Source: a virus
UHGV virus genome: UHGV-0109393
Strand: one strand, 5' to 3'
Length of the DNA: 63,844 bases
The position numbers and the translations under genes were made by a program. This document shows, piece after piece, positions 5,762 through 52,204 of this stretch. The stretch's first letter is position 1. Each line of letters starts with the position of its first letter. The notes below the pieces were generated by a model, which was given only the letters and a program-made list of their open reading frames with translations, did not search any database and was not told where the DNA came from.

Positions 5762-6207
5762 TGGGTAACTTTGGAAATTATTTCATTTTTATCATGGCAT
5801 TTGTTGCCATCATTGACCGTTTCATTTTTCGTCGCAAGAGTGTTGAGATTTTGAGTATTGGTGACGCTGTAGTGAAAGAATCCGCTATAGCATTTCCTGT
5901 TTCGCTACGTGTTAAACGAAGCTGGGTCAGCAATGCTCAAATCGAATATTGGTTGCAAGACCTGAAAAATCCATCTGTGGTTATTTCAGGGAAAACGCGA
6001 CCAGTTGACGCCTCAAAACGCGGTGAGAGAGAAGAGTATTTGCTCATCGATACGAAATATCTTGAGCCAACGAAGTGGGATCTGAAAGTCACATTGACTA
6101 ACGGTAACTGTCGACTGAATCCGCTTTATCGCATTTTCCCTATCAATGACTGCATAGAGCGCCAGTTTACGATCGAAAAGCGTGAAGGAGACTGGGATGT
6201 CAAATAA
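5761..6207 (+). CDS. Hypothetical protein, possible antiholin (LydB-like)
   Basis: 148 aa, N-terminal hydrophobic segment; position and size only. Confidence 0.3.
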   Translation: MGNFGNYFIFIMAFVAIIDRFIFRRKSVEILSIGDAVVKESAIAFPVSLRVKRSWVSNAQIEYWLQDLKNPSVVISGKTRPVDASKRGEREEYLLIDTKYLEPTKWDLKVTLTNGNCRLNPLYRIFPINDCIERQFTIEKREGDWDVK

Positions 6208-6817
6208 GAATAATTATGTTCTTCTTAATTATGATGAGTTAAACGAAAAGGGGCTGGCAAAACTCGTCAAAGAAATCAGCAAAGGTGGTTACAAGATAGC
6301 GAGGGTGATCCCTGCAAGTAATGGCAGGAAGAAAGATGGGATCATGACGCGCACGTTTACCCTTATTGGTATTGATGAACAGACAATGGAAGTTCAGGTT
6401 AATGATACCGGTGATATATCTGGGATCAAACTGAATGGTAAAACAGTACCGTTCAAGCCAGTAAAAACAATGTCGGCTTTGGGGCAATCTCTTGCGGCTT
6501 TATTTAATCGCGGAGCAACTTCTTTCCAGAAGTCATTAGCTCGAAAACTTGCTCGTGCAGCAAAAAATATTGATGACGGAAATAAGAAGCGGCAGGGAGT
6601 TAAATCTAACGCTCAGAAATTAGCTGAAGCGAAAGAATCACGTGATGCACTCCGTGAAGATATCGCTAATGCTAACGACAAACTGTCTAAACTCCAGAGC
6701 AAGTCAGACAAAGTAATGCAAGATACGGGTAACGTTAAAGCTGCCTTGTCTCAGGAAGTAGCTAAGACACGTGCTCTTAAAGAAGAAATCGCGCGCCTGG
6801 AGGATGAGCATGATTAA
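6182..6817 (+). CDS. Coiled-coil protein (position matches hdf of the P1 darA operon)
   Basis: 211 aa, Lys/Ala-rich coiled-coil C-terminus; true start may be the ATG at 6197; synteny only. Confidence 0.35.
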   Translation: MKETGMSNKNNYVLLNYDELNEKGLAKLVKEISKGGYKIARVIPASNGRKKDGIMTRTFTLIGIDEQTMEVQVNDTGDISGIKLNGKTVPFKPVKTMSALGQSLAALFNRGATSFQKSLARKLARAAKNIDDGNKKRQGVKSNAQKLAEAKESRDALREDIANANDKLSKLQSKSDKVMQDTGNVKAALSQEVAKTRALKEEIARLEDEHD

Positions 6818-8747
6818 CAATCCTTTACGAATTAATATTCAGTCTACTTTTGCTGATACGATCCCCGGCTATGTGCCAAGTCGCTGGTCTTCAGAAGAAT
6901 TAAGCGAAGATGACCTGATTTTTGAGGCGGCGACCTTAGAAGATATTGAGCTTGCCTATATGGGCAATGAAATTCTGGTTGTGTCTGACGAAGCTATGTT
7001 TGAGTCCATAACTACAACCAGAATTCGGTTAGCTCAAACAATGCGAGCTTTCGTCCGTGCGCTGAATCGTGGCCTGAATGGTACGAATATTATGGCAGGG
7101 ACTGATGAAGCTGGGACCGATGAAAATGGACGTAATTGTATTGGTGGTGCGATTATCGGTCGTGTACGTCGGGTAGCTAATATCCCTGTTTTGACCGCGC
7201 AGATACCGCTTACTGACGGGCAGAGTACAAGCATAATTTTCCACTCTCCAACAGCTGACGGGGCAAAAATAAAGAGTAACGACGAGCTTGTTGCATTTCA
7301 GTTTTTACTTAATAAGCGTAACGTAACTCACGTTGTCGCCCCGATTGGTGGGAGAGATGTTTCTTTAAGCCAGGTATGCCAGGCGCTATCTAATTTGATT
7401 GAGCGTAACAGCGAAAAATTTAAGAAAGCAAAAGAGCGCCAGGACAAAATGAAGGCAGATATTGAGAGTTATCTCAATGAAGCAGATAAACTGGCAGAAG
7501 AACGGTCAATAATGATTGATCAGGTGGAAGTTGCGCAACGTGGGCTGACTGAAAAGCGTGCTGCTCTTACGGAGATGCAAAAAAAACTTGATGCCCAGAA
7601 AGCCATCAACGAGGAATTACAAGCAAAACGCGATAAATTGTTGTCTGCTAAAGGTGAAAAAACGAAAGAACGAGCGTTTAGCGACCAGCTGCGACATGTA
7701 AAACATAATCTTGCCATTGACGGAAAAACAGTGCTGGATAATGGCGCTGAAGTTAATTATGTCACGTCCGGCAGTGACAATTTCGTTACGATAGTAGCAC
7801 CTGAAGGTAAATTCAGTATTGATGCCAGTGCTGTCAAAGGAGGCAGTTTGGCAGATGCTGCAACCAAATTACTTAAAGCCTACCGAGAGCATAACGCAGA
7901 TAAATATAAAGTTGATGTGTTACCAGGCCAGCAGGAAGACCCCGAACCACCACAGACAGACCCCGAGACGAACCCAGTATCACAACCAGAGAGCCAGGAT
8001 GTAGGTAAATACCACTATGCACTTCAATCTCGCCCGGCTGGTGTTGGTGCTGTGCCGGATGGAAATAAAGCCGTGCTTGATCGTCCTGACCAGGCTGATC
8101 AGTATTACGAATATGCTCGTCACGGTATCATTACGTATGACCGTAAACTGACAGATGAAGAAGTCAGCCAGTACGAGTTGCTCTATCTTCCTGATGAAGA
8201 TGAGCTGAAAGATTTTGCAGGCCAATTGGTTGTGTCCAGCATGTCGAAACATATTGATGGCTATGTAGACCTGTTTGGCAGTGACCTGAAAACATTCAAG
8301 GCGCAAGTGAAAATTCTTTTCCGCAAAGCGTTTCCAAACGTGGCGTATCCACTTGGTGATGGGGAGAACCTTTTCATTATGGACGTATATAACGCCCTTC
8401 AAAATCATTCAAACGAAGTAACGCCAGAGCCTGAATTAGCACCTGTAGTTGAGCCAGAATCACACCCACAAACAGCACCAGAGCAACAGCCAACGCCGGA
8501 AGACGCTGAAGAAGCGGCAACTGAAGCTGATCAGGAAGCAGATAAAGCGTTGGAGTACCTTAAATCCGTCCCGGTGCAGTTTACATCTCGCGATCTGACG
8601 GTAATCAGTGCCGAACTTGACCATGTGCAGGAAGCTGCAAACGCTCTTATCAGTGCTGGTCGATACGACGAGAACGAATCAACGGTTGGCGCAGCAGTTG
8701 ACTACCTGATCAACATTCTGGCTGAAATTCAGCAGGGAGGTGCTTAA
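6804..8747 (+). CDS. Large acidic virion-associated protein, DarA-like by position
   Basis: About 647 aa from the ATG at 6804, which lies just before the upstream stop (translational coupling); DarA call rests on synteny and size. Confidence 0.35.
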   Translation: MSMINNPLRINIQSTFADTIPGYVPSRWSSEELSEDDLIFEAATLEDIELAYMGNEILVVSDEAMFESITTTRIRLAQTMRAFVRALNRGLNGTNIMAGTDEAGTDENGRNCIGGAIIGRVRRVANIPVLTAQIPLTDGQSTSIIFHSPTADGAKIKSNDELVAFQFLLNKRNVTHVVAPIGGRDVSLSQVCQALSNLIERNSEKFKKAKERQDKMKADIESYLNEADKLAEERSIMIDQVEVAQRGLTEKRAALTEMQKKLDAQKAINEELQAKRDKLLSAKGEKTKERAFSDQLRHVKHNLAIDGKTVLDNGAEVNYVTSGSDNFVTIVAPEGKFSIDASAVKGGSLADAATKLLKAYREHNADKYKVDVLPGQQEDPEPPQTDPETNPVSQPESQDVGKYHYALQSRPAGVGAVPDGNKAVLDRPDQADQYYEYARHGIITYDRKLTDEEVSQYELLYLPDEDELKDFAGQLVVSSMSKHIDGYVDLFGSDLKTFKAQVKILFRKAFPNVAYPLGDGENLFIMDVYNALQNHSNEVTPEPELAPVVEPESHPQTAPEQQPTPEDAEEAATEADQEADKALEYLKSVPVQFTSRDLTVISAELDHVQEAANALISAGRYDENESTVGAAVDYLINILAEIQQGGA

Positions 8748-9121
8748 TGACTATCTCTGTTTTAGACCGTCTGAAATTGGGTAAAGAGCTATCAGATTTA
8801 ATGCAGGCGCAGAAAACCGCGCCAGTATTACAACGCGTCGCCATTGGTAAGCAGATTGTTGATCTGATGCTTAAACTGGGGTTGGGTACTGCCGCTCAAC
8901 CGATGTCGGAACCGCAACCACAACCACAGTCTGATCCTGTTGCAGATGAAGTTCCTAAGATAGTGACTGACTTCCTGGGCGGCGTGTTCACAAAGTCCAC
9001 ACAAATGGAATTTATTGATGCGCTGCGTGGGATCTCAAACTATGTTGGCGAGTTCCTTACGTTGGAGCAGGCTAAAGAACAGACCATAAGCTGGGTGAAA
9101 GCCAACGGTTATGCCGGGTAA
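8747..9121 (+). CDS. Hypothetical protein (DdrA-like by position)
   Basis: 124 aa, start overlaps the upstream stop. Confidence 0.3.
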   Translation: MTISVLDRLKLGKELSDLMQAQKTAPVLQRVAIGKQIVDLMLKLGLGTAAQPMSEPQPQPQSDPVADEVPKIVTDFLGGVFTKSTQMEFIDALRGISNYVGEFLTLEQAKEQTISWVKANGYAG

Positions 9122-9203
9122 TCAAAAGGGGGCGAAATGCCCCTTTCACTTCTCTGTTCTCACATAAATCACACTCTTTTTACACTCACAGCTTTCTCTA
9201 TAG

Positions 9204-10601
9204 TTGGAGTGTATTTTGAACAAATCAGTTACTTCTGCGCTTTCCGAGGCCGCAGATATTAACAGCGTCATTGCTCTGGTTTCTTCATTAGAGAGGAAAG
9301 AAACACGCCTGGGGCGAAGTAGCTACGTTGTCACCAGCAAAGGTGCAGAGGTAAAGACGGCTTTTAAGGTCGTTGATGCCAGCAGTCTGATCATTTCGAA
9401 CAACCTTGACGGTATGATTAACCCGGCCTTCCCGGAAGAACTCCAACCACGAGATCGTACCCGGCTATCCAGCAAACTCCAGGTTAACCGTATTGCCTCC
9501 AATTTACGCCCGGCACAATTAACGGATTCCGGTATGAGCAGCCACGGAGCGCCGATAGTTGGTCCGGACAACGTTGTTGAATCCGGCAACGGAAGGAGTA
9601 TGGGTATCTGGCGTGCCTATGAGCAAGGACAGGCGGATGAGTATCGCCAGTACCTGATCGACCATGCGAAAGAGTTTGGTCTGAATCCTGACGAAATTTC
9701 GCAAATGTCTATGCCCGTACTAGTGCGAGAAAGACTCACAGATGTAGACCGCGCTCAATTTGCCCGCGATTCAAACATTAGCGATCTGCAAGAGATGGCA
9801 GCAAGTGAAAAAGCGTATGCGGATGCGCAATTTCTCACTGAGAGCGTCATGGCGCTATTTAATCCTTCAGATGATGGAAATCTGCTGGCGCGGTCCAATG
9901 ATGCGTTTATTCGTGCGTTTTTGCGCGAAATTGGCGATACAGCGACGGCAGGCTTGCTTACTGCCGATGGGCGTCCCACGAAACAGCTTATCGATCGCAT
10001 CCAGAATGCAATTTTTGCCAAAGCGTACAAGGATGAAAGGCTTGTTCGGCTAGTGTCGGAAGAGCCAGATCCGGAAATGCGTAATATCCTGACCGCATTA
10101 AATACGGCAGCCAGCGATTTTGCGCAAATGCAGTCGCTGTCTGGCGACGCTCACCATGACGCAGTAACAGGCTTAGTGGACGGTATAGAGCAGGTTAATG
10201 GCCTGGATAAACAGGCTATTGCAGCGCTACAGGAAGCAATTAACCTTGTTCGTGAAGCAAAAGATAACGGTCAGGCAGTAGAAGAGGTGATCGCACAGCG
10301 TGGATTGTTTGGAGATAGCACTCCGGAAGCAGAAGCGCTTGCTCTGTTTATTGTTGCCAACAACCGAAGCGCTAAGCGAATGGGGGCCGCTTTCAAGAAA
10401 CTGGCGCAAAAAATTAACGATGAACTTATTCACCAACAACAAGCGTTAGGCGATATGTTCGGCGGCGGAGATGTCGATCTGCGTAGCATTTTATCTGCCG
10501 TTTCTGATGAAATTGAGGGTGAATTTGGCGAAGGGAAAGGTCTGAACTTTGCTATGTTTGAAAATTCTACAGTTCTAAATAATTGCAGTATGGAAAACTA
10601 A
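9204..10601 (+). CDS. Hypothetical protein (DdrB-like by position)
   Basis: 465 aa acidic protein in the same operon. Confidence 0.3.
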   Translation: MECILNKSVTSALSEAADINSVIALVSSLERKETRLGRSSYVVTSKGAEVKTAFKVVDASSLIISNNLDGMINPAFPEELQPRDRTRLSSKLQVNRIASNLRPAQLTDSGMSSHGAPIVGPDNVVESGNGRSMGIWRAYEQGQADEYRQYLIDHAKEFGLNPDEISQMSMPVLVRERLTDVDRAQFARDSNISDLQEMAASEKAYADAQFLTESVMALFNPSDDGNLLARSNDAFIRAFLREIGDTATAGLLTADGRPTKQLIDRIQNAIFAKAYKDERLVRLVSEEPDPEMRNILTALNTAASDFAQMQSLSGDAHHDAVTGLVDGIEQVNGLDKQAIAALQEAINLVREAKDNGQAVEEVIAQRGLFGDSTPEAEALALFIVANNRSAKRMGAAFKKLAQKINDELIHQQQALGDMFGGGDVDLRSILSAVSDEIEGEFGEGKGLNFAMFENSTVLNNCSMEN

Positions 10602-10665
10602 GCCAACCGCTGAAATCACATACTGATTATGCTGCCGCAAAACTGGAAACAATTTGCGGTGATTC

Positions 10666-14523: not shown

Positions 14524-14839
14524 CCTGTGTGTCTACAAAACATCCCAATGATCGGAAAATGTTCTCTCGATGATTTGTATTAGAAAATTAATTTGCTGTT
14601 TCTAAATCGGAATGTATGATCTGCATCATCGACTGAAGTCATCCATTGCTGAAATTTTTAGTTGATCTTCCATGTTTTCAGGCTTATATTCATGCCGTCG
14701 TAGCAAATTCTGCGACCAGGTTTGACAGCCTGAATGTTAGTGCGGACAACCGCAGATTTCCGATATTGCGGTATTTTTGTGTCCGTAAACCGCGTTACGC
14801 CCGAATTATGGTGGGGCGTGATGGGGAGGCTTAGGCCTG

Positions 14840-14910
14840 CTGGTTTCACTAACGCCAGTCTGTCAACCCTGTCACGTCCTGCCACCTGTTTGACAGCGGG
14901 TAGCAGGTTG
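14840..14910 (+). ncRNA. Candidate c4-type antisense RNA with target sites (module 1); boundaries approximate
   Basis: GTTTGACAGC occurs at 14720 and 14889; its near-complement TCTGTCAACC sits between them at 14858; a second pair is CCTGCCACC / GGTAGCAGG; all lie just upstream of the icd-like RBS. Confidence 0.3.
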
Positions 14911-14936
14911 TTAAACCTGTTAGTGAGGCCGTAACT

Positions 14937-15161
14937 ATGGTTAATGCCAATCCTTGCTCACGTCCAGAATTCATCTGGCGTTTTCACTCCCTGCAAAAAC
15001 ACTGCGATCACTTCGCAATTGCCGCAACTGAAAAAGAAGCCCGTTCTCTGATCCCTGATCAGTATGGCGTTCTCACTGGTCGTTTCTCTACTTCCCCACA
15101 ACCAAACACCAATCCCTGGTATCGCAATATTACCAATCCCGGCATTGCGGAGGCTCACTGA
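14937..15161 (+). CDS. Icd-like small protein
   Basis: 74 aa; stop overlaps the ant start (ATGA); paralogue of 51063..51278 (shared EFIWRF...QKH...AATE-EAR motif). Confidence 0.45.
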   Translation: MVNANPCSRPEFIWRFHSLQKHCDHFAIAATEKEARSLIPDQYGVLTGRFSTSPQPNTNPWYRNITNPGIAEAH

Positions 15162-15868
15162 TGGATATCTGCATTCTCGAAAAGCCATCAATGACCAGCA
15201 TTGAGATCGCGGAGCTGGTGGGAAAACGTCATGACAATGTGAAACGCACTATTGAGACATTAGCCAAAGGTGGCGTTATTGCTCGTCCTCAAATTGAGGT
15301 TTTCGAAAAAATCAATAACTTAGGACTACGGCGTAGTGTTGAGGCTTACGTCTTCGAAGGCGAGCAAGGCAAGCGCGATAGCATTATCGTCGTCGCGCAG
15401 CTCTCTCCCGAATTCACCGCCCGGCTGGTGGACCGCTGGCGCGAACTGGAAGAACAAGTACGCCAGCCGTTGACCGAAATAGAGATGATCGCCGCAATGG
15501 CTGCAAATGCAGTTCAGCAGCAAAAGCGGCTTCATGCTGTTGAGTCAAAGGTTAGCCAGGTCGCTGAAACCGTCGAGCAAATCAAGAAAGGCAATATTCC
15601 GGAAGGCTACATTGGCTACCGACAGCTGGCGGCGAAATGTGGCCTGACTGAAGCCAAATGTCGCAACCTGGTTAACGCTTACCGGATTCCCACCGATACA
15701 CATGAGTTTTTAACTCCAGAGGGGGTATTGTCGCGTCGTTCCATCGTGGCCTTATCTCCCTTCATGAATGCTTTTAACCGGATGATGTCGGAGGCTGAAC
15801 ACCGAGGAAAACGCTGGTATCACCCCAAAATGGGGCAATTCCAGGTGATCGGTTGGGGAGGTGAATGA
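15161..15868 (+). CDS. Antirepressor, Rha/Ant family (paralogue 1)
   Basis: N-terminal MTSIEIAELVGKRHDNVKRTIETL is the Rha-family signature; paralogue of 51278..52204. Confidence 0.7.
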   Translation: MDICILEKPSMTSIEIAELVGKRHDNVKRTIETLAKGGVIARPQIEVFEKINNLGLRRSVEAYVFEGEQGKRDSIIVVAQLSPEFTARLVDRWRELEEQVRQPLTEIEMIAAMAANAVQQQKRLHAVESKVSQVAETVEQIKKGNIPEGYIGYRQLAAKCGLTEAKCRNLVNAYRIPTDTHEFLTPEGVLSRRSIVALSPFMNAFNRMMSEAEHRGKRWYHPKMGQFQVIGWGGE

Positions 15869-16065
15869 TGGACATCATGCAGGCGGTAAAAAAAATCAGG
15901 GAAGAACAGGCTGAAGTGTGCCGCCGTAAAGCATGGAGTGTTGGTGTATGGGCCTGGCCTGATAATTACTCTACTACCGGATGGTTTTGTATTAATGGAC
16001 TCCAGATCCGGGAAGTTTATTTATCGACGGCTGATATAGTCGGTAATGATTGGATCGTGACTTGA
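15865..16065 (+). CDS. Hypothetical small protein
   Basis: 66 aa, start overlaps the ant stop. Confidence 0.3.
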   Translation: MMDIMQAVKKIREEQAEVCRRKAWSVGVWAWPDNYSTTGWFCINGLQIREVYLSTADIVGNDWIVT

Positions 16066-16073
16066 TGCGTGAT

Positions 16074-16098
16074 GCCCCGGCCTGGCCGGGGCTTTTTT
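16074..16098. terminator. Bidirectional rho-independent terminator
   Basis: GCCCCGGCCtgGCCGGGGC followed by TTTTTT. Confidence 0.7.
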
Positions 16099-16583
16099 CA
16101 TGCCTCATTAGTTGAGGTTGCTGCGTTTCCGACTGGTAACAGAGCGGTATTGCGTGGTTCGCCAGCAGGCCAGCGATAGCCAGACACTCTTGATGTTGGG
16201 AATGCGCGAATATTAACCGCATCCCCCTGGTTCCCACCCAGGACAAGCAGATCGCCATTGGCGCGGCGTCCGACAACGAAGCCTACGTGCCCACCGCCTA
16301 CGCGGGTAAATACAACGATACATCCGTATGCCGGTGTATCTAATTTCTCGCCCCAATCCAGATAGGATTTTGCCGACTCAAATCTTGTTGAGCGGATGCC
16401 TACACGTTCCAGCATTGCACCGACAAATGCTGCGCACCACGGCGTTTCATCGTCTTTAATTCCGCCGCGCTTGATGTCGCGCCAGAACTGAACGATTTCA
16501 GGGTTGTGTTTAGCGCCTTTTATTTCAGTCAGGCCAATGTGCTTACGGGCTTCAATTAGCCAGCGAGGTTCAATGTTTGCCAT
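16098..16583 (-). CDS. Putative peptidoglycan hydrolase (CHAP/NlpC-P60-like) endolysin candidate
   Basis: 161 aa with conserved Cys (PWCAAFV) and His (GGGHVGFVVG) typical of this phage hydrolase class. Confidence 0.5.
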   Translation of the reverse strand: MANIEPRWLIEARKHIGLTEIKGAKHNPEIVQFWRDIKRGGIKDDETPWCAAFVGAMLERVGIRSTRFESAKSYLDWGEKLDTPAYGCIVVFTRVGGGHVGFVVGRRANGDLLVLGGNQGDAVNIRAFPTSRVSGYRWPAGEPRNTALLPVGNAATSTNEA

Positions 16584-16733
16584 ATTTTTCTCCCGGTCAT
16601 GGGTTAATAAGTAGGCAAACTATGGGGAGTATGTGATTTTGACGGTAGTATCGTCCCCCTGAAAATAACATTCTCCATACCCTCTCAACCGTACCGCATA
16701 GCGGATTTTTTACGGTTTAGAGGGGGTAATCCT

Positions 16734-19700
16734 TTGGATAAACTACTTCATTCAATCAGTGAAGCCTCCAGCTTAGGCGAACTGATTGAAATTGTTAGTC
16801 GGTTGCATAAATTACGTGCTGTTGCGACCTTTGGCGTTAAGAAAGTCGATGGTGTCAGCATTCAAAAAACACGGCGGGCAGCAAACAACGCCGCAGTAGA
16901 GCTTCTTAATTCCCTTCCGCCCGGCTTCGATGGGGCGAAATTAACTGACGAACAACGTCAGATTCTTGCCGGGTATACCGGTGAAGGCGGCCTGACAGAT
17001 GGTGAGGGCAGCCAATACGAATACTACACACCACAGTTTATGGCTGAAGGTATATGGGATCTGTTTGCTGACTACGGTATTGATGGCGGGCACGTACTGG
17101 AACCATCAGCGGGCACAGGTATTTTCCAGGAGACAAAACGGCAGGGCATGATAATGACCAGCGCCGAACTATCTCCGATTTCCGGTCGAATAAACCAGCT
17201 TTTGCACCCGGAAGACGATGTGAATATCGGGGCGTTTGAGGCGCTGGCGGCGAAAGACGCAATGTATGACCACGCTGTTGGTAACGTACCGTTTGGTGAA
17301 GGGCGTTCCGGCGTTGCCGGGCTTGATCCGGCATATGCAAACGAGAAGAACGTTGGCAATTACTTTGTGCTGCGCACGATCGACAAGGTTAAGCCTGGTG
17401 GACTAATTGTATTGGTGGTGCCGAATGGCATGACCGATGGTACGAAATACAAAAAATTGCGCGATAAAGTCAGCCGTAAAGCGGAATTTTTGGGCGCACA
17501 TCGTATGCCTTCTGGTACGTTCAGCGAATCCGGTACAGATACAGTGGTGGACGTATGGGTATTGCGTAAACACCCGGAAACCTTCCTGGAGATGATCCCC
17601 GACACGGATGATGCAACGCTCAAGTCGGCAAACGTCCTTTGGGATACCTTCCTCAAAGGGAAATGGTTTACAACCGAAGGGAAGCGATTTGTTTACGGCG
17701 ATATGGAGCGTACCAGCTTCCGCAATACCCTGGTGGTGAAAAAGGACGGTCGTGTATCCAATGAGTCGATGAAAACCGCTCTATCGCGCCGCTTTGAAAG
17801 CCGCATTAATTGGGATTTGCTTGGCGTAACTACTCAGGCATGGCAGGGCGCGAAAGTGGGCGATAAACGCCTTGTAGGCGGCATCTGGCATGAGTTTGAT
17901 GGCCTGAAATGGGTCAAGGACGCGACAACCAAATCCTCCGCTCTTGATGTAAATCGATATGGTGTTACGACGTTTGGTGATCTGCAGATCGCGTTTCAGT
18001 CAACAAATGGCATTCTGGCGTTGTCATGGGACCAGATATCGGCGATCGCGTCCGACTATCCGTCGGTTATCAGTGATGAAGTAGCGGCAATGATTCGCTT
18101 TGCTGGCAAGCAGAGAGAAAAAGACAGAGAACGCGTTATGCGCGGCGCACTGATAGGGCAGTTGATCAACAAGGCGCTTGATAAGCGTAATCTGGGGGAA
18201 AATGTTGATGATGAACTTGCTGATGCCGCGCGCCTGGCGGAAGCCGAAATTGCGAAGTATGGTCCGCCGCACGCGATTAAGCTGAATGGGATTGCTGAAG
18301 CTGGCGCTAAAAACTGGATGACTTTCACTGGCAACGTGAAACAGGACGGCTCTGCTTCTGACCTCCTTGCTGGACGACTTGATGTAACGGATGGTGCTGC
18401 CGGTATTGACTTTACACGCCCGGAACAAGTTGTAACCCACCTTTTCAGTGACGTGGCACTTAATCCAATCACACTGGACGATTTTCGTGAGGCGTTTGCT
18501 GGCGAACTGCCAGGAGACGACGATGCTGCTCTGGAATACCTGGCGAAATTTGATGATATCGCTATTGATGGGTATGGCTGCCTGCTGCCGATGGACCGCG
18601 CCACCAGCGGCGATATTGCAACCAAAACAGCATTGCTGGTGGGCTGGCGTGATGCGTCAACAGGTGAGCAGAAAGCGAACTTTGAGCGTCAGTTGGCGAA
18701 AATCGAAGAGAAACGCATTTTCACGCCACTAAATAAAGTCACCGTTAATCTGAACGCCCGCTGGCTGGATCGCCGCTTGATAAAAGAGTTCCTGGCAGAG
18801 CAGGGCTATGACGAGTTTAAGTATACAGAACCCGACCTTAAGGTTGAGGACGGCATTCTGGTATCTCCGGACGATTACGAAGGTAAGGACGGGGTATTTA
18901 CTGGCTATCAACTACGAACCGTAAACGGCAAAAACGGGAATGAGTTCAAGAAGGCCAACAATAAAGACGGCTTCCTGAACCAGTTAGAAAACTACCTGAA
19001 CGGCATTAAACCGCGTGGGCAGAACGCTAACGAGTACCTGGATAAGATTGCTCAACTGGAAATTAGCTTCAACGACTGGTTACGCACTCACCCGCAGGCT
19101 GATCAGATAGCCCGCGACTATAACGACGCATTTAATGGCTTCATCCCGTTTACGCATTCTGACGCACCGCTTGGCCTGGAGGGGATTAGTGGGAAGCGCA
19201 TTCCTCTGACTTATCAGAATGAAGAAGTTCGGCGCTTGTCAGAAGATGGGCGCGGCATCATGGGATTTGGTACCGGGCTGGGTAAAACCACGACCGCGCT
19301 TGCGCTTGAGGCGTATAACTTCGAAACAGGTCGCACTAAACGCACGTGTATTGTTGTTCCGAAGGCGGTTTATCAGAACTGGTATCACGAGGCACAGAGC
19401 TTCTACAGTGCTGATGCCTTCGCCAATATGATGTTTATCGGTCTGGATGAAGTTCGTGATGACAGCGGAAATATTCTGACCGCGCCGGTGCTTGATGAAA
19501 ATGGCGAACCACGCCTCGACAGTAACGGGCAGCCTCTTACCCGAAATGTTGTGAAAGAGTCCGCCAGCGCCGTTATCGTTCAGCGCATGAACATGATCCC
19601 GTCGTCAAATTGGCGAACGGTCATCATGACAAAAGAGCAATTCGCGTCTATCCCGCTACGAGAAGAAACCATTGAGGAAAACTCACAGCAAGCGGTCTTT

Positions 19701-22700
19701 AATGCTGTGGAAATGGGGCGTCTTGACCTGGCATCTGGCAAACACCGTGACGCGCAGAAGAAGAACAAGATTAAGGACCAGGCCGCAAATACCGGTACAA
19801 CGAAGAAGCAGAATATCCCGTACTTTGAGGATATGAACTTCGATAGCGTAATTGCCGACGAAGGACATAACTACCGCAACTCCTTTAGCGCCGGGCGCGA
19901 AGCGGGGCAACTGGCATATTTGCCTAACCCGGCAGTATCCAAAATGGCCCGCGACATGGCTGTAAAAGCTGCGTACATGATGAAACGCAACAACGGGCGT
20001 GGTGTGGTTATGCTGACGGCAACACCGCTGGTGAACAGCCCGATTGATGCTTTCAACATGCTGTCTACTGTCATTCCGCAGGAAGAGTGGATGCGCATGG
20101 GTATTGTTACGCCGGATGATTTCGTTCGCGTGTTCGGTAAAACAGCCACAGTTCAGGTTCAGAAAATTTCCGGTGAGGTGGAAGAGAAGCAGGGACTGGT
20201 GGGCTTCCAGAACCTGGATGGTCTGCGTGGTATTTTCCATCGCTGGACTACTCTGAAGACTGCTGCGGACGTCGGGGCGACGGTAAAAATCCCTGATATT
20301 GTCGAGAATACCTTGCAGATCCCGATGACAGGAGAGCAAGAGGCCATTTACGAAGAACTTCGTAAGCGTGCACAGGAGTTAAGTAGTAAAGATGCGCTGA
20401 CGGTCGATGAAAACGGGCATATCACAAACGAAAAACCGGATGATTTCATCTTCTCCATCATCCGCGACATGGATAAGGTTGCTATAGATCCTGATCTGTA
20501 TGCCAGTGCGATTACATTCCAGTTCCCCGTTGAGCTTGCAGACAAGGTAAAAGCTATTGCTGATGCCCTGCCAAAAGTAGCTGGCGGTAAAGTGGCAGAT
20601 GATGCAGACGAGGCCGAAGAAGATGGCGCTGGTGGGCTGGTCAGTACGCGTACCAGCAAGGTAGTGAAGACCACCTTTAGCGAACATCCGTCGCATGTTG
20701 AAATACGTGCTGGCATTGAACTGGAAGCTGAAATACTGAAGGCCATTGCGGCTGCCGGTATTGATATGCAGCAGGTATCACACCCCATCCCGCCGAAGTA
20801 TGCCGCGCTGGTCGAAAACCTTCGTGAAGGTCTGAAGAACGGTAAACAAATCGTCTTCATTGATGAAAAAGCCCAGCACCAGAAGCTGCGCCGTATTATT
20901 GCCAGTGCACTGCAAATGCCGGAGCAGGAGATAGGCATTATCAATGCGACGACAGTTAGCCAGGCTGGCGGCGTCAAGCTGAAGAAGGTGAATAAGCCGA
21001 CTGAACCTACGCCAAATAAAAACGGTGAATACAAAGAAGGTGCATGGCAAACCTACTACAGCAAACTTGCCCAATATGAGGATTATCTCTCAGCTAAAAA
21101 TGATGCTGGCCTTGAGGGCATGGAAGGTATTGCCGCCGACTATAACGAAGGTCGCACGCGCATCATAATCTGTAACAAGAAGGCTGAAGTAGGTATTAAC
21201 TTGCACATCGGTACAACCGATATCCACCATCTGACACTACCCTGGACTCCTGCCAGTATCGACCAACGTAATGGGCGCGGCGCTCGGGTAGGCTCACCAC
21301 AAGAAAAGGTCAATGTTCACTACTATTGTGGCAAAGGCACATTTGATGACTTCCGTCTGGATACGCTGAAACGTAAGAAGGACTGGATCAATATGGTGAT
21401 GACCTCAGACATGTCAGAGATCGCCAATGGTGATGCGGATGACGCAGATGAACGCGCCATTATGCTGGCGGCAAATCCGGAAGAACGCCGTGCAATCATG
21501 AGTCGTCAGGCGCAAGAGCGTGAAGAACGTCTGAAACTGAAAGCCCTACGCGAAGCCAATAATGCTCTCGATAACTACCTGAAAGCGGCGAATGCTGCCG
21601 GGAAAGATATCGGCATGATGGAGACAGAACTGAAAAGCGCGATGGAGCAGGTAGAGCATTACCAGCGCAATCTTGACGACCTGATTAAAGCGGGGACGAA
21701 CAGGAACGGGCAGAAATATGTTCTGGAACAGTTGCGAGACTACAGAAAACGTGTGCGGGAGCTACGCTTTGCGATCACCAGAGCTAAAGACGCTGACACC
21801 GTTATGAAACGTTCTCGTGGTGATCTGGAACGTGCGATTAAAGCCGGGGTTCTGGAGCTTGATGCCGATGTATTGCAGAACCCACAGGAGTATGTACGCA
21901 CTGAGAAAAATATCTTGTTGCACAAGGGCAGCCATTATCGCGCGATCATCGATGAGAATCACAATACGACAGCAATTGTTCGTGTTACCGCCATTGATGC
22001 GGAAAGGGGCGGGTGTACGTGCCGCATATCCTGGCTGGATGTGGCTAGTCGTTACTCTCGTTCTCCGGGGACGGCATTATTTTTGCCCTTTAACCTGATA
22101 ATTGAATCGGTAACCTTTGAAGAGGGAGTTGCAGAATCGCGTGAAACAGCTGCACGTGGTGTTCAATGCCACCAGCTATCAACAACACTTACGCGCGATC
22201 AGTTCTATGATGCTATTCGCAATGGGGTAATGAATGTCACTGCCGGGAAGCCTGGTAGAGTATGGGGCGGTGGTTCAGCTATTAAATACTGGGCTTATCG
22301 CACAGATGATGGTCAGATCGCGCTGTCATCGACCTATGATGGCGTGATAGGCCAAAAAATCGGGCGAGCATCGGATATAGCACCTGAGCGATGGATATAT
22401 CCTGATGGCAACGACGAGGCGCTGAAGCGTGAAGTGGCAAAAATACAAGCCAGTGATAACCCGCTGAATGTCGTGGACGGTGAGGGATTCCTCCAGGCAT
22501 TGTATGGATATGATTACATCCAGGGAATGCAGGCATGGGGGTCACAGGCCACGATGGATGATGTTTCCCAGGAGTTTGAAAACTGGATGGCAGGGCGTGG
22601 TTTGTCCGGTCGCTCACTTAATAAAGTTACTTCTGAAGATATTCTTAGCCTGTTCCGTAAACCGTCCGGAGAAGGGCTGGAATCTTTCTGGAAGACCGTG

Positions 22701-23573
22701 GTGGCATACCGTTTATTCCAGGGCAGGATGAAAGCCTTTAGCAACACTGATGACATTGAACGGATGTTTAATCAGGTGAAGGCCGCGAAAATTACGGCGA
22801 AAATTGAGAAAACACGAGCTGCGCTGGTGGCCTGGCGCGATGCATTGTTTGAGCAATATAAATCACTCAGCGATGCCGATGGCTGGTCGGCATTGGAGCA
22901 GCTGGCTAATAATGGTGTCGATGGAGCGAAATTAGCCATTGTTCAGGCCGATAATCCTCTGGATTCGCCAGCAGCGCAGTGGATTAAGGTGGGGGCTGTC
23001 ATCAATGCATTTGATGAAAAACACATTAGTAAGGACGATTTTGCTGATGCTGTTTCTGTTAATCGCCTGGTAGAAATGGCCACCCGTCGCGCCCGTGAGT
23101 TGAAAGACGGCGACTATGTGAATGAGTTGCCGGATGCGCTCAAATCGGCAACGTGGCAGGACTATGTATCGCTGAAAAACGGCGGGGCCACTGAATCAGA
23201 GATCGCGGAAAGGCTTGAGCAGGCTGAAAGCAAAAGAGAAGAGCAGGCGGCAGAGGCTGAAGCCAGAGCTGATGAAGCGGCGAATGATGACTATATCATT
23301 GTGGTTAATGATAAGCCGATTCGCGCTAAGGCGCGTGTTCGCGGGCGCTGGTGGAGCGTCAGCGAAGACGTTGGCGCGGTTTATCTCATTGCCGACCAGC
23401 CAGGTTCCTCGACAATACGGAACGCCAAAGACGCGATTAAGAAGATTGGCGGGCGTTTCTGGAATTTTGAAGCAAACCCGGTTGCTGATGTGAACTTTGA
23501 CCGTCCGGCGTGGATGGTATCTACGCGTTACTCGGTAGATGAACTGCGTAAAATAATCGCCGATGCGGCCTAA
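16734..23573 (+). CDS. darB: DarB-like giant protein: N-terminal N6-adenine methyltransferase fused to a DExH helicase
   Basis: 2279 aa; methyltransferase motifs LEPSAGTGIF and GNVPFG; helicase Walker A GFGTGLGKTT, DEGH box VIADEGHNY, motif VI QRNGRGARVG. Confidence 0.8.
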   Translation: MDKLLHSISEASSLGELIEIVSRLHKLRAVATFGVKKVDGVSIQKTRRAANNAAVELLNSLPPGFDGAKLTDEQRQILAGYTGEGGLTDGEGSQYEYYTPQFMAEGIWDLFADYGIDGGHVLEPSAGTGIFQETKRQGMIMTSAELSPISGRINQLLHPEDDVNIGAFEALAAKDAMYDHAVGNVPFGEGRSGVAGLDPAYANEKNVGNYFVLRTIDKVKPGGLIVLVVPNGMTDGTKYKKLRDKVSRKAEFLGAHRMPSGTFSESGTDTVVDVWVLRKHPETFLEMIPDTDDATLKSANVLWDTFLKGKWFTTEGKRFVYGDMERTSFRNTLVVKKDGRVSNESMKTALSRRFESRINWDLLGVTTQAWQGAKVGDKRLVGGIWHEFDGLKWVKDATTKSSALDVNRYGVTTFGDLQIAFQSTNGILALSWDQISAIASDYPSVISDEVAAMIRFAGKQREKDRERVMRGALIGQLINKALDKRNLGENVDDELADAARLAEAEIAKYGPPHAIKLNGIAEAGAKNWMTFTGNVKQDGSASDLLAGRLDVTDGAAGIDFTRPEQVVTHLFSDVALNPITLDDFREAFAGELPGDDDAALEYLAKFDDIAIDGYGCLLPMDRATSGDIATKTALLVGWRDASTGEQKANFERQLAKIEEKRIFTPLNKVTVNLNARWLDRRLIKEFLAEQGYDEFKYTEPDLKVEDGILVSPDDYEGKDGVFTGYQLRTVNGKNGNEFKKANNKDGFLNQLENYLNGIKPRGQNANEYLDKIAQLEISFNDWLRTHPQADQIARDYNDAFNGFIPFTHSDAPLGLEGISGKRIPLTYQNEEVRRLSEDGRGIMGFGTGLGKTTTALALEAYNFETGRTKRTCIVVPKAVYQNWYHEAQSFYSADAFANMMFIGLDEVRDDSGNILTAPVLDENGEPRLDSNGQPLTRNVVKESASAVIVQRMNMIPSSNWRTVIMTKEQFASIPLREETIEENSQQAVFNAVEMGRLDLASGKHRDAQKKNKIKDQAANTGTTKKQNIPYFEDMNFDSVIADEGHNYRNSFSAGREAGQLAYLPNPAVSKMARDMAVKAAYMMKRNNGRGVVMLTATPLVNSPIDAFNMLSTVIPQEEWMRMGIVTPDDFVRVFGKTATVQVQKISGEVEEKQGLVGFQNLDGLRGIFHRWTTLKTAADVGATVKIPDIVENTLQIPMTGEQEAIYEELRKRAQELSSKDALTVDENGHITNEKPDDFIFSIIRDMDKVAIDPDLYASAITFQFPVELADKVKAIADALPKVAGGKVADDADEAEEDGAGGLVSTRTSKVVKTTFSEHPSHVEIRAGIELEAEILKAIAAAGIDMQQVSHPIPPKYAALVENLREGLKNGKQIVFIDEKAQHQKLRRIIASALQMPEQEIGIINATTVSQAGGVKLKKVNKPTEPTPNKNGEYKEGAWQTYYSKLAQYEDYLSAKNDAGLEGMEGIAADYNEGRTRIIICNKKAEVGINLHIGTTDIHHLTLPWTPASIDQRNGRGARVGSPQEKVNVHYYCGKGTFDDFRLDTLKRKKDWINMVMTSDMSEIANGDADDADERAIMLAANPEERRAIMSRQAQEREERLKLKALREANNALDNYLKAANAAGKDIGMMETELKSAMEQVEHYQRNLDDLIKAGTNRNGQKYVLEQLRDYRKRVRELRFAITRAKDADTVMKRSRGDLERAIKAGVLELDADVLQNPQEYVRTEKNILLHKGSHYRAIIDENHNTTAIVRVTAIDAERGGCTCRISWLDVASRYSRSPGTALFLPFNLIIESVTFEEGVAESRETAARGVQCHQLSTTLTRDQFYDAIRNGVMNVTAGKPGRVWGGGSAIKYWAYRTDDGQIALSSTYDGVIGQKIGRASDIAPERWIYPDGNDEALKREVAKIQASDNPLNVVDGEGFLQALYGYDYIQGMQAWGSQATMDDVSQEFENWMAGRGLSGRSLNKVTSEDILSLFRKPSGEGLESFWKTVVAYRLFQGRMKAFSNTDDIERMFNQVKAAKITAKIEKTRAALVAWRDALFEQYKSLSDADGWSALEQLANNGVDGAKLAIVQADNPLDSPAAQWIKVGAVINAFDEKHISKDDFADAVSVNRLVEMATRRARELKDGDYVNELPDALKSATWQDYVSLKNGGATESEIAERLEQAESKREEQAAEAEARADEAANDDYIIVVNDKPIRAKARVRGRWWSVSEDVGAVYLIADQPGSSTIRNAKDAIKKIGGRFWNFEANPVADVNFDRPAWMVSTRYSVDELRKIIADAA

Positions 23574-23609: not shown

Positions 23610-24044
23610 ATGACGACACTAATTGACACTGTAAAACCGACGGAATCCTACCTTGAGGAAATCTTGCCGCAGGCACTCAATGGCAGGAGTGAAGAAGAAT
23701 ACCTGACAGTTTATCTTGATGGCATGGTAGAAAGACTGAAGAAAAATCCACAGCTTTATCACCTTTATGGTCCGTGGTGGCCCGCGCTCAAAACGATATT
23801 GCTGGAGCGCGGCGACATATCATTTGGACAAGTTGTAGATAGTGATGTGGCAGAGATCTACAAAATGAGTCGCCCGGCGCTTACGGTTTTGGCTGGGCAT
23901 CTGTATTCGAGCGATCGCCTGGAAAATGACGCGGTATACAATCCCGTTCATGCTCTGGAAGTCGCACCTTATGCTGATGATACAGAGCCATACGTGTACA
24001 CAAGTTACGACGAGTCAATAGAGAAATATCGAATCATGGGGTAG
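23610..24044 (+). CDS. Hypothetical protein
   Basis: 144-aa ORF directly after darB. Confidence 0.4.
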   Translation: MTTLIDTVKPTESYLEEILPQALNGRSEEEYLTVYLDGMVERLKKNPQLYHLYGPWWPALKTILLERGDISFGQVVDSDVAEIYKMSRPALTVLAGHLYSSDRLENDAVYNPVHALEVAPYADDTEPYVYTSYDESIEKYRIMG

Positions 24045-51062: not shown

Positions 51063-51278
51063 ATGGCTACTACCCCTACCCCAACTCATTCTGAATTTAT
51101 CTGGCGTTTCTATTCCTGCCAAAAACACCTCTATATCTGCGTCATGGCTGCTACCGAAGCAGAAGCGCGCTCATACCTTCCCGAAGAACCCTGCATTTTT
51201 GCTGCTCGCTTCACTCTTGATGCGATGGAGATCCTCAATTACTGGAATCTGCCGATGAACTGCGTGGAGGTGCACTGA
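51063..51278 (+). CDS. Icd-like small protein (paralogue 2)
   Basis: 71 aa; paralogue of 14937..15161; stop overlaps the ant start. Confidence 0.45.
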   Translation: MATTPTPTHSEFIWRFYSCQKHLYICVMAATEAEARSYLPEEPCIFAARFTLDAMEILNYWNLPMNCVEVH

Positions 51279-52204
51279 TGAATCTGTCCATCTCTCAAAA
51301 AGCGACAATGACCAGCATTGAGATCGCGGAACTGGTAGGTAAGCGCCCTGATAACGTTAAACGCACCATTGAACACCTGGCGGAACGGGGCGTAATATCT
51401 TTTCCTCAAATTGAGGAAAAGCCCACCGCAGGCCGCCCGGCGAGCTATTACGTCTTCGAAGGCGAGCAAGGCAAGCGCGATAGTATTGTCGTCGTCGCGC
51501 AGCTCTCTCCCGAATTCACCGCCCGGCTGGTGGACCGCTGGCGCGAACTGGAGAATGCCCGGGTACAGTTAAAATCAAAAGCCGAAATTCTGGCTGAAAT
51601 GGCGCAAATGCATCTTGAGCATGAACGCCGGATCAACGCCGTAAATGCCCAGGTAGCCGAGGTATCAGCACAAGTATCGATGGTCGCTGAAACACTCGAG
51701 CAAATAAAGAAAGGCAATATTCCGGAAGGCTACATTGGCTACCGCCAGCTGGCGGCGAAATGTGGCCTGACTGAAGCCAAATGCCGAAACCTGGTCAACG
51801 CTTACCGGATTCCCACCGATACGCATGAGTTTTTAACTCCCGATGGTTTGCTTGCGCGACGCTCCATTGTGGCCATGGCCCCCTTCCGGAAAGCCTTTAA
51901 GCAGGTGATGTCGGAGGCAGAACCACGCAATAAACGCTGGTATCATCCAAAGATGGGGATGTTTCAGGCAATCCACCATCCTGTGCCTGAAAGTCCAAAG
52001 GCAAACCTGTCGTTGCATACCGCCAGAGAGAGGATTAAAACAGGCTATGCAATCGTATGCCGTCGAGCATCCTGGCCTGAAGGTGTATGGGTGTGGCCCG
52101 AAGGTGGATCACGAAAGCACTGGCGCACTATCCGGGATGGGAAAATCCATGCGATTGATTTAGCTCCAGAGGATGTTGTTGCTACGGACTGGATTGTTAG
52201 TTAA
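51278..52204 (+). CDS. Antirepressor, Rha/Ant family (paralogue 2)
   Basis: MTSIEIAELVGKRPDNVKRTIEHL; the first ~100 and last ~80 residues are near-identical to 15161..15868, with a different middle. Confidence 0.7.
   Translation: MNLSISQKATMTSIEIAELVGKRPDNVKRTIEHLAERGVISFPQIEEKPTAGRPASYYVFEGEQGKRDSIVVVAQLSPEFTARLVDRWRELENARVQLKSKAEILAEMAQMHLEHERRINAVNAQVAEVSAQVSMVAETLEQIKKGNIPEGYIGYRQLAAKCGLTEAKCRNLVNAYRIPTDTHEFLTPDGLLARRSIVAMAPFRKAFKQVMSEAEPRNKRWYHPKMGMFQAIHHPVPESPKANLSLHTARERIKTGYAIVCRRASWPEGVWVWPEGGSRKHWRTIRDGKIHAIDLAPEDVVATDWIVS

Follow-up and report, generated by a model that had tools for sequence, protein, structure and literature searches.

Bacteriophage P1 packages the proteins Hdf/DarA, DdrA, DdrB, DarB and Ulx in this order and ejects them together with its DNA (PMC12810830). 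DarB is a head-internal protein, present in about 40 copies per virion, and is the last to join the capsid (PMC9024508). Its N-terminal 30 amino acids (aa) suffice to send a reporter into capsids, a signal whose sequence requirements have yet to be defined (PMC9024508). DarB, Ulx and DdrB are required against EcoB and EcoK (PMC12810830), and Dar protection works in cis only (PMC12707154). In P1, Ulx is the partner needed for the incorporation of DarB. This injected methyltransferase-helicase of 250 kDa has been a puzzle for 35 years. In this study, we describe a gene at positions 16734-23573 of the virus genome UHGV-0109393 (63,844 nucleotides (nt), hereafter the window), which almost certainly encodes an orthologue of DarB.

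Two further groups of proteins are closely related in design. The methylase-helicase dyad of the 'polyvalent proteins' consists of an LPD36 domain (GxGU motif), a TP motif, an adenine methyltransferase of the EcoKI/TaqI kind and a C-terminal SWI2/SNF2 ATPase (Iyer et al. 2017, PMC5512222). All these features are common to DarB of the window, which differs from the giant multi-effector polyvalent proteins in being a stand-alone dyad with a tail of the P1/D6 group, and which reads NVPF in motif IV, whereas NPP(Y/F) is given for the wider family (PMC5512222). Type I HsdM proteins (Vibrio vulnificus 7eew/3ufb, EcoKI M 2ar0/2y7c and StySJI M 2okc) are the best profile and fold matches to aa 90-300. 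Unlike HsdM, DarB comes without HsdS and HsdR partners, is fused to its own SNF2 motor and shares only about 15-18% identity with these proteins; moreover, HsdM serves cellular defence, whereas DarB would be a virion-carried counter-defence factor.

The first-pass annotation placed an ORF (open reading frame) of 2279 codons at 16734-23573 and compared its product to DarB. Both statements stood: the frame lies exactly there on the plus strand, uninterrupted, and BLASTP against P1 DarB (YP_006479.1, 2255 aa) gave 1524 bits and 40% identity over the full length (E = 0), the two proteins being colinear from end to end in the alignment that the annotation had proposed as a check. P1 DarB shares the order of LPD36 domain, methyltransferase and SNF2 helicase as well as the motifs GNVPFG, GTGLGKTT and DEGH. 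With P1 DarB as tblastn query the identity to the window was 43.8% over aa 1-1887. Among the PHROG families, phrog_1685 matched in full length and phrog_10089, 'DarB-like antirestriction', matched as well. Since the chance of an open frame of 2279 codons is (61/64)^2279, about e^-109, the ORF is not a product of chance. The following features were assigned to the gene.

16734-23573, plus strand: coding sequence of the darB orthologue, TTG start, 2279 aa, about 252.5 kDa, pI 5.4, uninterrupted frame
16734-16823, plus strand: N-terminal 30 residues, same position as the capsid-targeting signal of P1 DarB
16851-17018, plus strand: LPD36-like helical domain with GxGG motif (GEGG, aa 83-86), a domain defined in PMC5512222
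17019-17633, plus strand: putative core of a gamma-class N6-adenine DNA methyltransferase, from motifs, profile and predicted fold
17634-19193, plus strand: middle region, aa 301-820, predicted to be folded, predicted local distance difference test (pLDDT) score mostly 80-93
19194-20378, plus strand: N-lobe of an SNF2-type ATPase with motif I GTGLGKTT (K851), motif II DEGH (aa 1042-1045) and motif III LTATP
20379-21113, plus strand: insertion between the ATPase lobes
21114-21653, plus strand: helicase C-lobe with motif VI QRNGRGARVG (aa 1511-1520)
21654-23570, plus strand: C-terminal module, aa 1641-2279, restricted to close P1/D6-like relatives and mosaic among alleles

The closest described relative is orf15 of the temperate P1-like phage D6 (D6_15, ASR76325.1), annotated as 'defense against restriction; similar to P1 gene darB'. 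It encodes 2278 aa as compared to 2279 aa in the window and is 95% identical in protein and 92.9% in DNA sequence; the 115 aa differences cluster in a recombinant patch, aa 1701-1800. The neighbours are also the same, with a gene for a CHAP-domain protein upstream of darB and ulx, orf13 and pmgM downstream. A darB-like gene of this type is thus already known: it is annotated in D6, occurs in identical form in RefSeq plasmids of Escherichia coli and is found throughout the plasmid prophages of E. coli. The darB DNA of the window is 100% identical to that of E. coli plasmid NZ_CP149812.1. Plasmids covering at least 80% of darB number 113, almost all of them from E. coli, Salmonella or Shigella, and the 90%-identity protein cluster of DarB comprises 4384 member sequences.

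Translation of darB starts at a TTG codon. This is the correct start because the alignment to P1 DarB opens at residue 1 and because D6 has the same TTG, behind a near-identical leader. The next in-frame Met is residue 103, and a start there would cost the conserved N-terminal motifs.

The N-terminal domain is predicted to adopt the Rossmann-type fold of type I HsdM/TaqI-like (gamma-class) adenine-N6 DNA methyltransferases, because its family profile matches HsdM and its structural model matches adenine-N6 methyltransferases. For the family, aa 1-350 were searched against 1.84 billion cluster representatives (50% identity clusters), which yielded 8050 clusters at E <= 0.001, many of them with proteins of 2000-2600 aa. 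Conservation was read from the best 150 of these 8050 representatives, which reach from 70% down to about 40% identity. Against the PDB, the family profile of the methyltransferase domain hit HsdM 7eew with 7e-11 and StySJI M and EcoKI M with about 1e-7 to 1e-8. An AlphaFold2 model of aa 1-830 (mean pLDDT 81.8) had HsdM, BsaXI, PacII, M.BseCI, M.TaqI and CamA as top PDB matches in Foldseek, with E values of 7e-9 to 1e-5 and a probability of 1.0.

The motifs of the domain follow each other as TP (aa 99-100), motif I EPSAGTGIF (aa 123-131) and motif IV NVPF (aa 184-187), with motif I N-terminal to motif IV. Essentially invariant in the 150 representatives are the GxGG of LPD36, with G83, G85 and G86 unchanged in the family alignments, the sequence Y/F-T-P, motif I in the form xPxxGxGxF, including P124, G127, G129 and F131, and motif IV in the form N-(V/I/L)-P-F-G. 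The last is mostly NVPFG, and I or L stand at the second position in few members. Asn184, Pro186, Phe187 and Gly188 do not vary, and the first Pro of the (D/N/S)PP(Y/F/W) pattern is replaced family-wide. NVPFG occupies the same alignment columns as NPPFG of EcoKI M (M.EcoKI) and likewise as NPPF of StySJI M, and the nearest solved HsdM, 7eew, has G-V-P-F in these columns.

The first-pass annotation had called motif IV degenerate and therefore supposed a non-canonical methyltransferase. Degeneracy is contradicted by the family alignment: NVPF is a fixed and selected family version of motif IV and not decay in this copy, because it is near-invariant in the 150 representatives, is present in P1 DarB and aligns with NPPF. 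In M.TaqI, the N6 of the adenine is held by the side chain of the Asn together with the main-chain carbonyl of the residue after it, and the aromatic residue packs against the base. With Val in the second position, this backbone contact could in principle be preserved. Possibly, the invariant N-V-P-F pocket is the mark of a separate subclass of adenine methyltransferases that is sequence-nonspecific while it is carried along by an SNF2 motor.

It has to be weighed whether the methyltransferase domain of DarB methylates at all, or whether it is a module that only binds S-adenosylmethionine (SAM) or DNA while the SNF2 motor or steric shielding protects the DNA. The departure of motif IV from the textbook pattern at its second position speaks for the latter, as does the score of the Pfam model N6_Mtase (PF02384), which at 20.1 bits stays just below the gathering cut-off of 20.4. 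Methylation by DarB is not reported in the literature (PMC11109961), and the strict cis action of the Dar proteins has led to a hypothesis of physical occlusion (PMC12707154). On the other hand, even at just 40% identity no variation is seen in Asn184, Pro186, Phe187 and Gly188, in the GxG SAM loop with F131 or in the TP motif, which touches the catalytic Asn; this pattern fits a retained catalytic pocket better than a relic. The exchange of Val for Pro is itself fixed and not random decay, and the HsdM 7eew also reads V-P-F. In addition, the ratio of nonsynonymous to synonymous substitution rates (dN/dS) is 0-0.13 in the 100-codon bins of the methyltransferase. Many DarB orthologues carry a precomputed PF02384 match. 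Taken together, we consider a domain that does not methylate unlikely. As to methylation being the protective chemistry itself, DarB of the window may work in this way, and we put this forward tentatively, as somewhat less than an even prospect.

Behind the methyltransferase lies a helicase. Its fusion to the N-terminal domain had been recognised from the sequence before, and its motifs proved to be intact; its naming as a DExH helicase did not stand. According to its motifs the helicase belongs to the SNF2 family of superfamily 2 ATPases, with DEGH as motif II, and would be of the type that translocates on double-stranded DNA rather than a DExH-box enzyme in the narrow sense. In the Pfam search that the first-pass annotation had suggested, SNF2-rel_dom (51.2 bits as compared to a cut-off of 24.9, E 1.2e-13), ResIII (24.1 against 22.5) and Helicase_C (24.1 against 23.5) exceeded their cut-offs, and N6_Mtase alone fell short as described above. 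Motifs I (GKT), II (DEGH or DEAH), III (TATP) and VI (QRNGRGxRxG) are conserved throughout the family, those of the N-lobe being kept in about 120-130 representatives. All five signature strings on which the earlier reading was built occur exactly once: SAGTGIF at aa 125-131 (nt 17106-17126), NVPFG at aa 184-188 (nt 17283-17297), GKTT at aa 850-853 (nt 19281-19292), DEGH at aa 1042-1045 (nt 19857-19868) and QRNGRGARVG at aa 1511-1520 (nt 21264-21293). Phrog_29705, a family with unassigned function, spans aa 9-765, and about half of the family representatives align over the middle region. Pfam searches of the middle region, the insert between the lobes and the C-terminal region at E <= 1 returned nothing credible.

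Methylase-helicase combinations are also found in defence systems, and DarB could be a restriction-modification (R-M) or other defence enzyme of the prophage, of the ISP/IIG, DISARM, BREX or Zorya kind, which guards the lysogen and is not injected as a counter-defence. Weak matches point in this direction, namely of the helicase lobes to models of DrmD, ZorD, DpdE and BrxHII and of the methyltransferase to 'MTase_II' and 'mad2'. The NCBIfam scores are far below the cut-offs, however, with 43.8 bits against 610 for DrmD, 31.6 against 500 for DpdE and 27.7 against 600 for dnd_restrict_1, and the PADLOC matches span only 30-200 aa of generic motifs. No nuclease domain is detected by Pfam anywhere in DarB. 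Furthermore, its full-length orthologue P1 DarB is a proven virion protein, and the gene lies beside ulx and head genes in all relatives examined. A role in guarding the lysogen is therefore highly improbable.

By contrast, DarB of the window is probably a virion-delivered counter-restriction factor, as judged from its P1 orthologue. The complete Dar set is encoded in the window, with all six genes hdf, darA, ddrA, ddrB, darB and ulx, and the PHROG names agree. These genes and the immediate neighbours of darB are as follows.

6182-6817, plus strand: hdf, 40% identity in tblastn with P1 Hdf
6771-8747, plus strand: darA, 38% identity in tblastn with P1 DarA
8747-9121, plus strand: ddrA, 33% identity in tblastn with P1 DdrA
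9204-10601, plus strand: ddrB, short form, 64% identity in tblastn with P1 DdrB over the N-terminal 442 aa only
14937-15868: icd/ant, upstream of darB
16098-16583, minus strand: gene for a stand-alone peptidoglycan hydrolase of 161 aa with a CHAP domain
23610-24044, plus strand: ulx orthologue, 144 aa, 48% identical to P1 Ulx, phrog_1629 'Ulx-like anti-restriction' with 5e-59

The ulx gene had been missed by the first-pass annotation. It sits directly 3' of darB as in P1, where its product is the packaging partner of DarB. The adjacency of darB and ulx is kept in relatives from Enterobacter and Aeromonas, even where the Aeromonas Ulx is only 31% identical, and in every relative examined the DarB gene is found together with ulx and head genes. 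Upstream, the hydrolase gene and the icd/ant unit are located as had been described. The position of darB away from the dar operon, a gap of 6.1 kb from the operon at 6182-10601, was also seen correctly; it is no peculiarity of the window, since it corresponds to the normal P1-type layout. In P1, hdf-darA-ddrA-ddrB likewise lie away from darB, with prt and pro between them. There, as in the Enterobacter and Aeromonas relatives, prt-pro is divergent from darB, whereas in the window and in D6 both are co-directional and repL, icd, ant, the small ORF orf17 and the convergent CHAP gene are located between prt-pro and darB.

The same neighbourhood bears on another explanation, namely that DarB mainly serves the phage itself, in DNA transactions or in the assembly of the head, for instance in DNA ejection or early replication, and that D6-type phages use it against restriction only secondarily or not at all. 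In P1, DarA and Hdf double as factors of head morphogenesis (PMC12810830). The darB gene of the D6 type is placed among morphogenetic genes, and both the C-terminal module and DdrB of the D6 type are strongly unlike their P1 counterparts. That darB is consistently paired with ulx and the dar operon indicates, however, that it belongs to the same system as in P1, and a main role outside of anti-restriction is improbable.

Some observations weigh against a virion-delivered counter-restriction factor of the P1 kind. The N-terminal 30 aa, which in P1 target the capsid, are poorly conserved and diverged in the window; they are predicted to form two short helices with low pLDDT. DdrB has 465 aa as compared to 995 aa in P1, the same short form as in D6; it corresponds to no more than the N-terminal half of the P1 protein, so that the pathway of assembly may not be the same as in P1. 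Likewise, the divergence of the C-terminal module from P1 DarB (12-25% identity over the C-terminal 640 aa) means that the target spectrum may differ. The canonical late promoter of P1 (-22 box AAGTGAYTW, 4 nt, TAnnnT) was not found upstream of darB. Together with the subthreshold N6_Mtase score, it also counts that the biochemical mechanism of DarB is described as 'not defined' and that methyltransferase activity is reported for no DarB (PMC11109961), and our literature search turned up no experiment on a D6-type DarB. Plasmid-based assays are confounded by restriction alleviation that depends on Chi and EcoKI sites (PMC11109961).

For DarB as a counter-restriction factor, virion packaging, ejection and anti-restriction are inferred by orthology from the genetics of P1. 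By analogy, DarB would be made during lytic growth and would enter the procapsid by means of its N-terminus. Its loading would depend on Hdf/DarA, then on DdrA, DdrB and Ulx; the window has the genes for every one of these. After ejection with the DNA into the next host, it would shield that same DNA molecule in cis against type I restriction of the EcoKI/EcoBI kind. With its 6 recognition sites for EcoKI and 12 for EcoBI, the window would be open to such restriction. The SNF2 motor would use ATP to track along the entering duplex, and while tracking, the fused methyltransferase would modify adenines, or the complex would displace or block translocating type I enzymes. A mechanism of motor plus methyltransferase is the most economical one and goes back to a hypothesis of Iyer et al. 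(PMC5512222). We put forward the coupling of translocation to methylation as a hypothesis.

The C-terminal third of DarB differs in its history from the rest. Beyond aa 1700, at most 16% of the family representatives align, and no recognisable fold was found in the C-terminal module except small SH3/Tudor-like barrels. Compared to D6, dN/dS is 0-0.28 in all 100-codon bins, and because this holds for every bin, the gene appears to be functional over its entire length and under strong purifying selection. A pseudogene or an artefact was ruled out by the intact frame together with this selection. The synonymous rate dS between the window and D6 ranges from 0.05 to 1.7 between bins, the pattern of a recombination mosaic. 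In the patch at aa 1701-1800 identity to D6 falls to 66%. We rejected positive selection for this patch, where a dN/dS of 0.15 with a dS of 1.7 indicates an imported divergent segment.

The same holds among E. coli alleles from other D6-like plasmids. Those labelled P0152, P0159, P0161 and P0162 are mostly 96-100% identical to the window over aa 1-1600, with P0161 and P0162 falling to 78-86% in three bins of this part; over aa 1601-2279 (21534-23570 in the window) all four are just 57-89% identical. This indicates that the C-terminal third has been swapped by recombination between otherwise near-identical alleles. From the comparisons with alleles, with P1 and with the family, the methyltransferase and motor core is ancient and fixed, and the C-terminal third is an exchangeable module of the P1/D6 group. 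That the C-terminal 640 aa are specific for this group and exchanged by recombination goes beyond the existing annotation.

Being restricted to the group, swapped between alleles and without a recognisable fold, the C-terminal module is a speculative candidate for a specificity determinant. It might determine whether a given DarB counteracts particular type I R-M families, BREX or other defences of the host, an idea that we regard as rather doubtful. If it were true, DarB of the D6 type and of the P1 type, and also the two C-terminal types of D6-like DarB in E. coli, would differ in their anti-defence spectrum. For the long-standing question of DarB function, the pointers gained are that NVPF is a selected family signature, that the whole ORF including the methyltransferase is under strong purifying selection, and that the recombining C-terminal third of the P1/D6 group is the obvious place to seek target specificity.

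Signals for the expression of darB are listed in the order in which they precede the gene.

16074-16092, no strand assigned: strong bidirectional intrinsic terminator, perfect 8 G-C pairs, T runs on both sides
16631-16666, plus strand: candidate promoter, sigma-70-like TTGACG-16-GAAAAT at 16639-16666, a consensus match only, in a region identical in D6
16720-16726, plus strand: Shine-Dalgarno sequence GAGGGGG, 7 nt 5' of the TTG codon, kept in D6

The terminator closes both the repL/icd/ant unit and the convergent CHAP gene, and since it ends the upstream unit, darB needs a promoter of its own. The sigma-70-like site, a weak one, overlaps with ATGTGATTT, which agrees with the -22 box of LPlyz, a late promoter of P1, at 8 of 9 positions. 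The spacing from ATGTGATTT to a TAGTAT -10 hexamer is 6 nt, as compared to 4 nt in the P1 late promoter. Just 5' of the Shine-Dalgarno sequence, the leader at 16690-16716 has nested inverted repeats (AACCGTA...TACGGTT around CCGC-ATA-GCGG) followed by a run of six T; these are kept in D6 as well.

The window as a whole is colinear with D6 throughout, in reverse orientation and at about 89-98% identity, and because of this colinearity it is a D6-like, P1-type plasmid prophage of E. coli. Between ddrB and the portal gene/prt, D6 has about 1.1 kb with orf23 and orf24 that the window lacks, at 10561-10613. D6-type phages have no counterpart to the C-terminal half of P1 DdrB. A second icd/antirepressor-like module at 51266-51958 has about 74% identity to 15149-15835 upstream of darB; the modules of the window match D6 orf82/83 and orf18/19. 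The best PHROG match of the CHAP protein is the C-terminal part of the family 'baseplate hub subunit and tail lysozyme'. Its gene is transcribed convergently with the icd/ant unit and has the terminator in common with it, and in the Enterobacter relative a CHAP gene is also found near ddrB.

Chi sites (GCTGGTGG) occur 29 times on the plus and 16 times on the minus strand of the window (1-63844), where about 0.84 per strand are expected from the base composition. Six of them lie inside darB, at 18601, 18635, 20628, 22169, 22823 and 23347. For P1, Chi enrichment is a known trait and 11 Chi sites are reported in darB (PMC11109961). Finally, the Aeromonas P1-like plasmid L007 carries at 14647-16239, a few kb 3' of darB-ulx, a gene with a PAAR motif and a Tle1-like lipase of the type VI secretion system, an unexpected cargo in a P1-like element.

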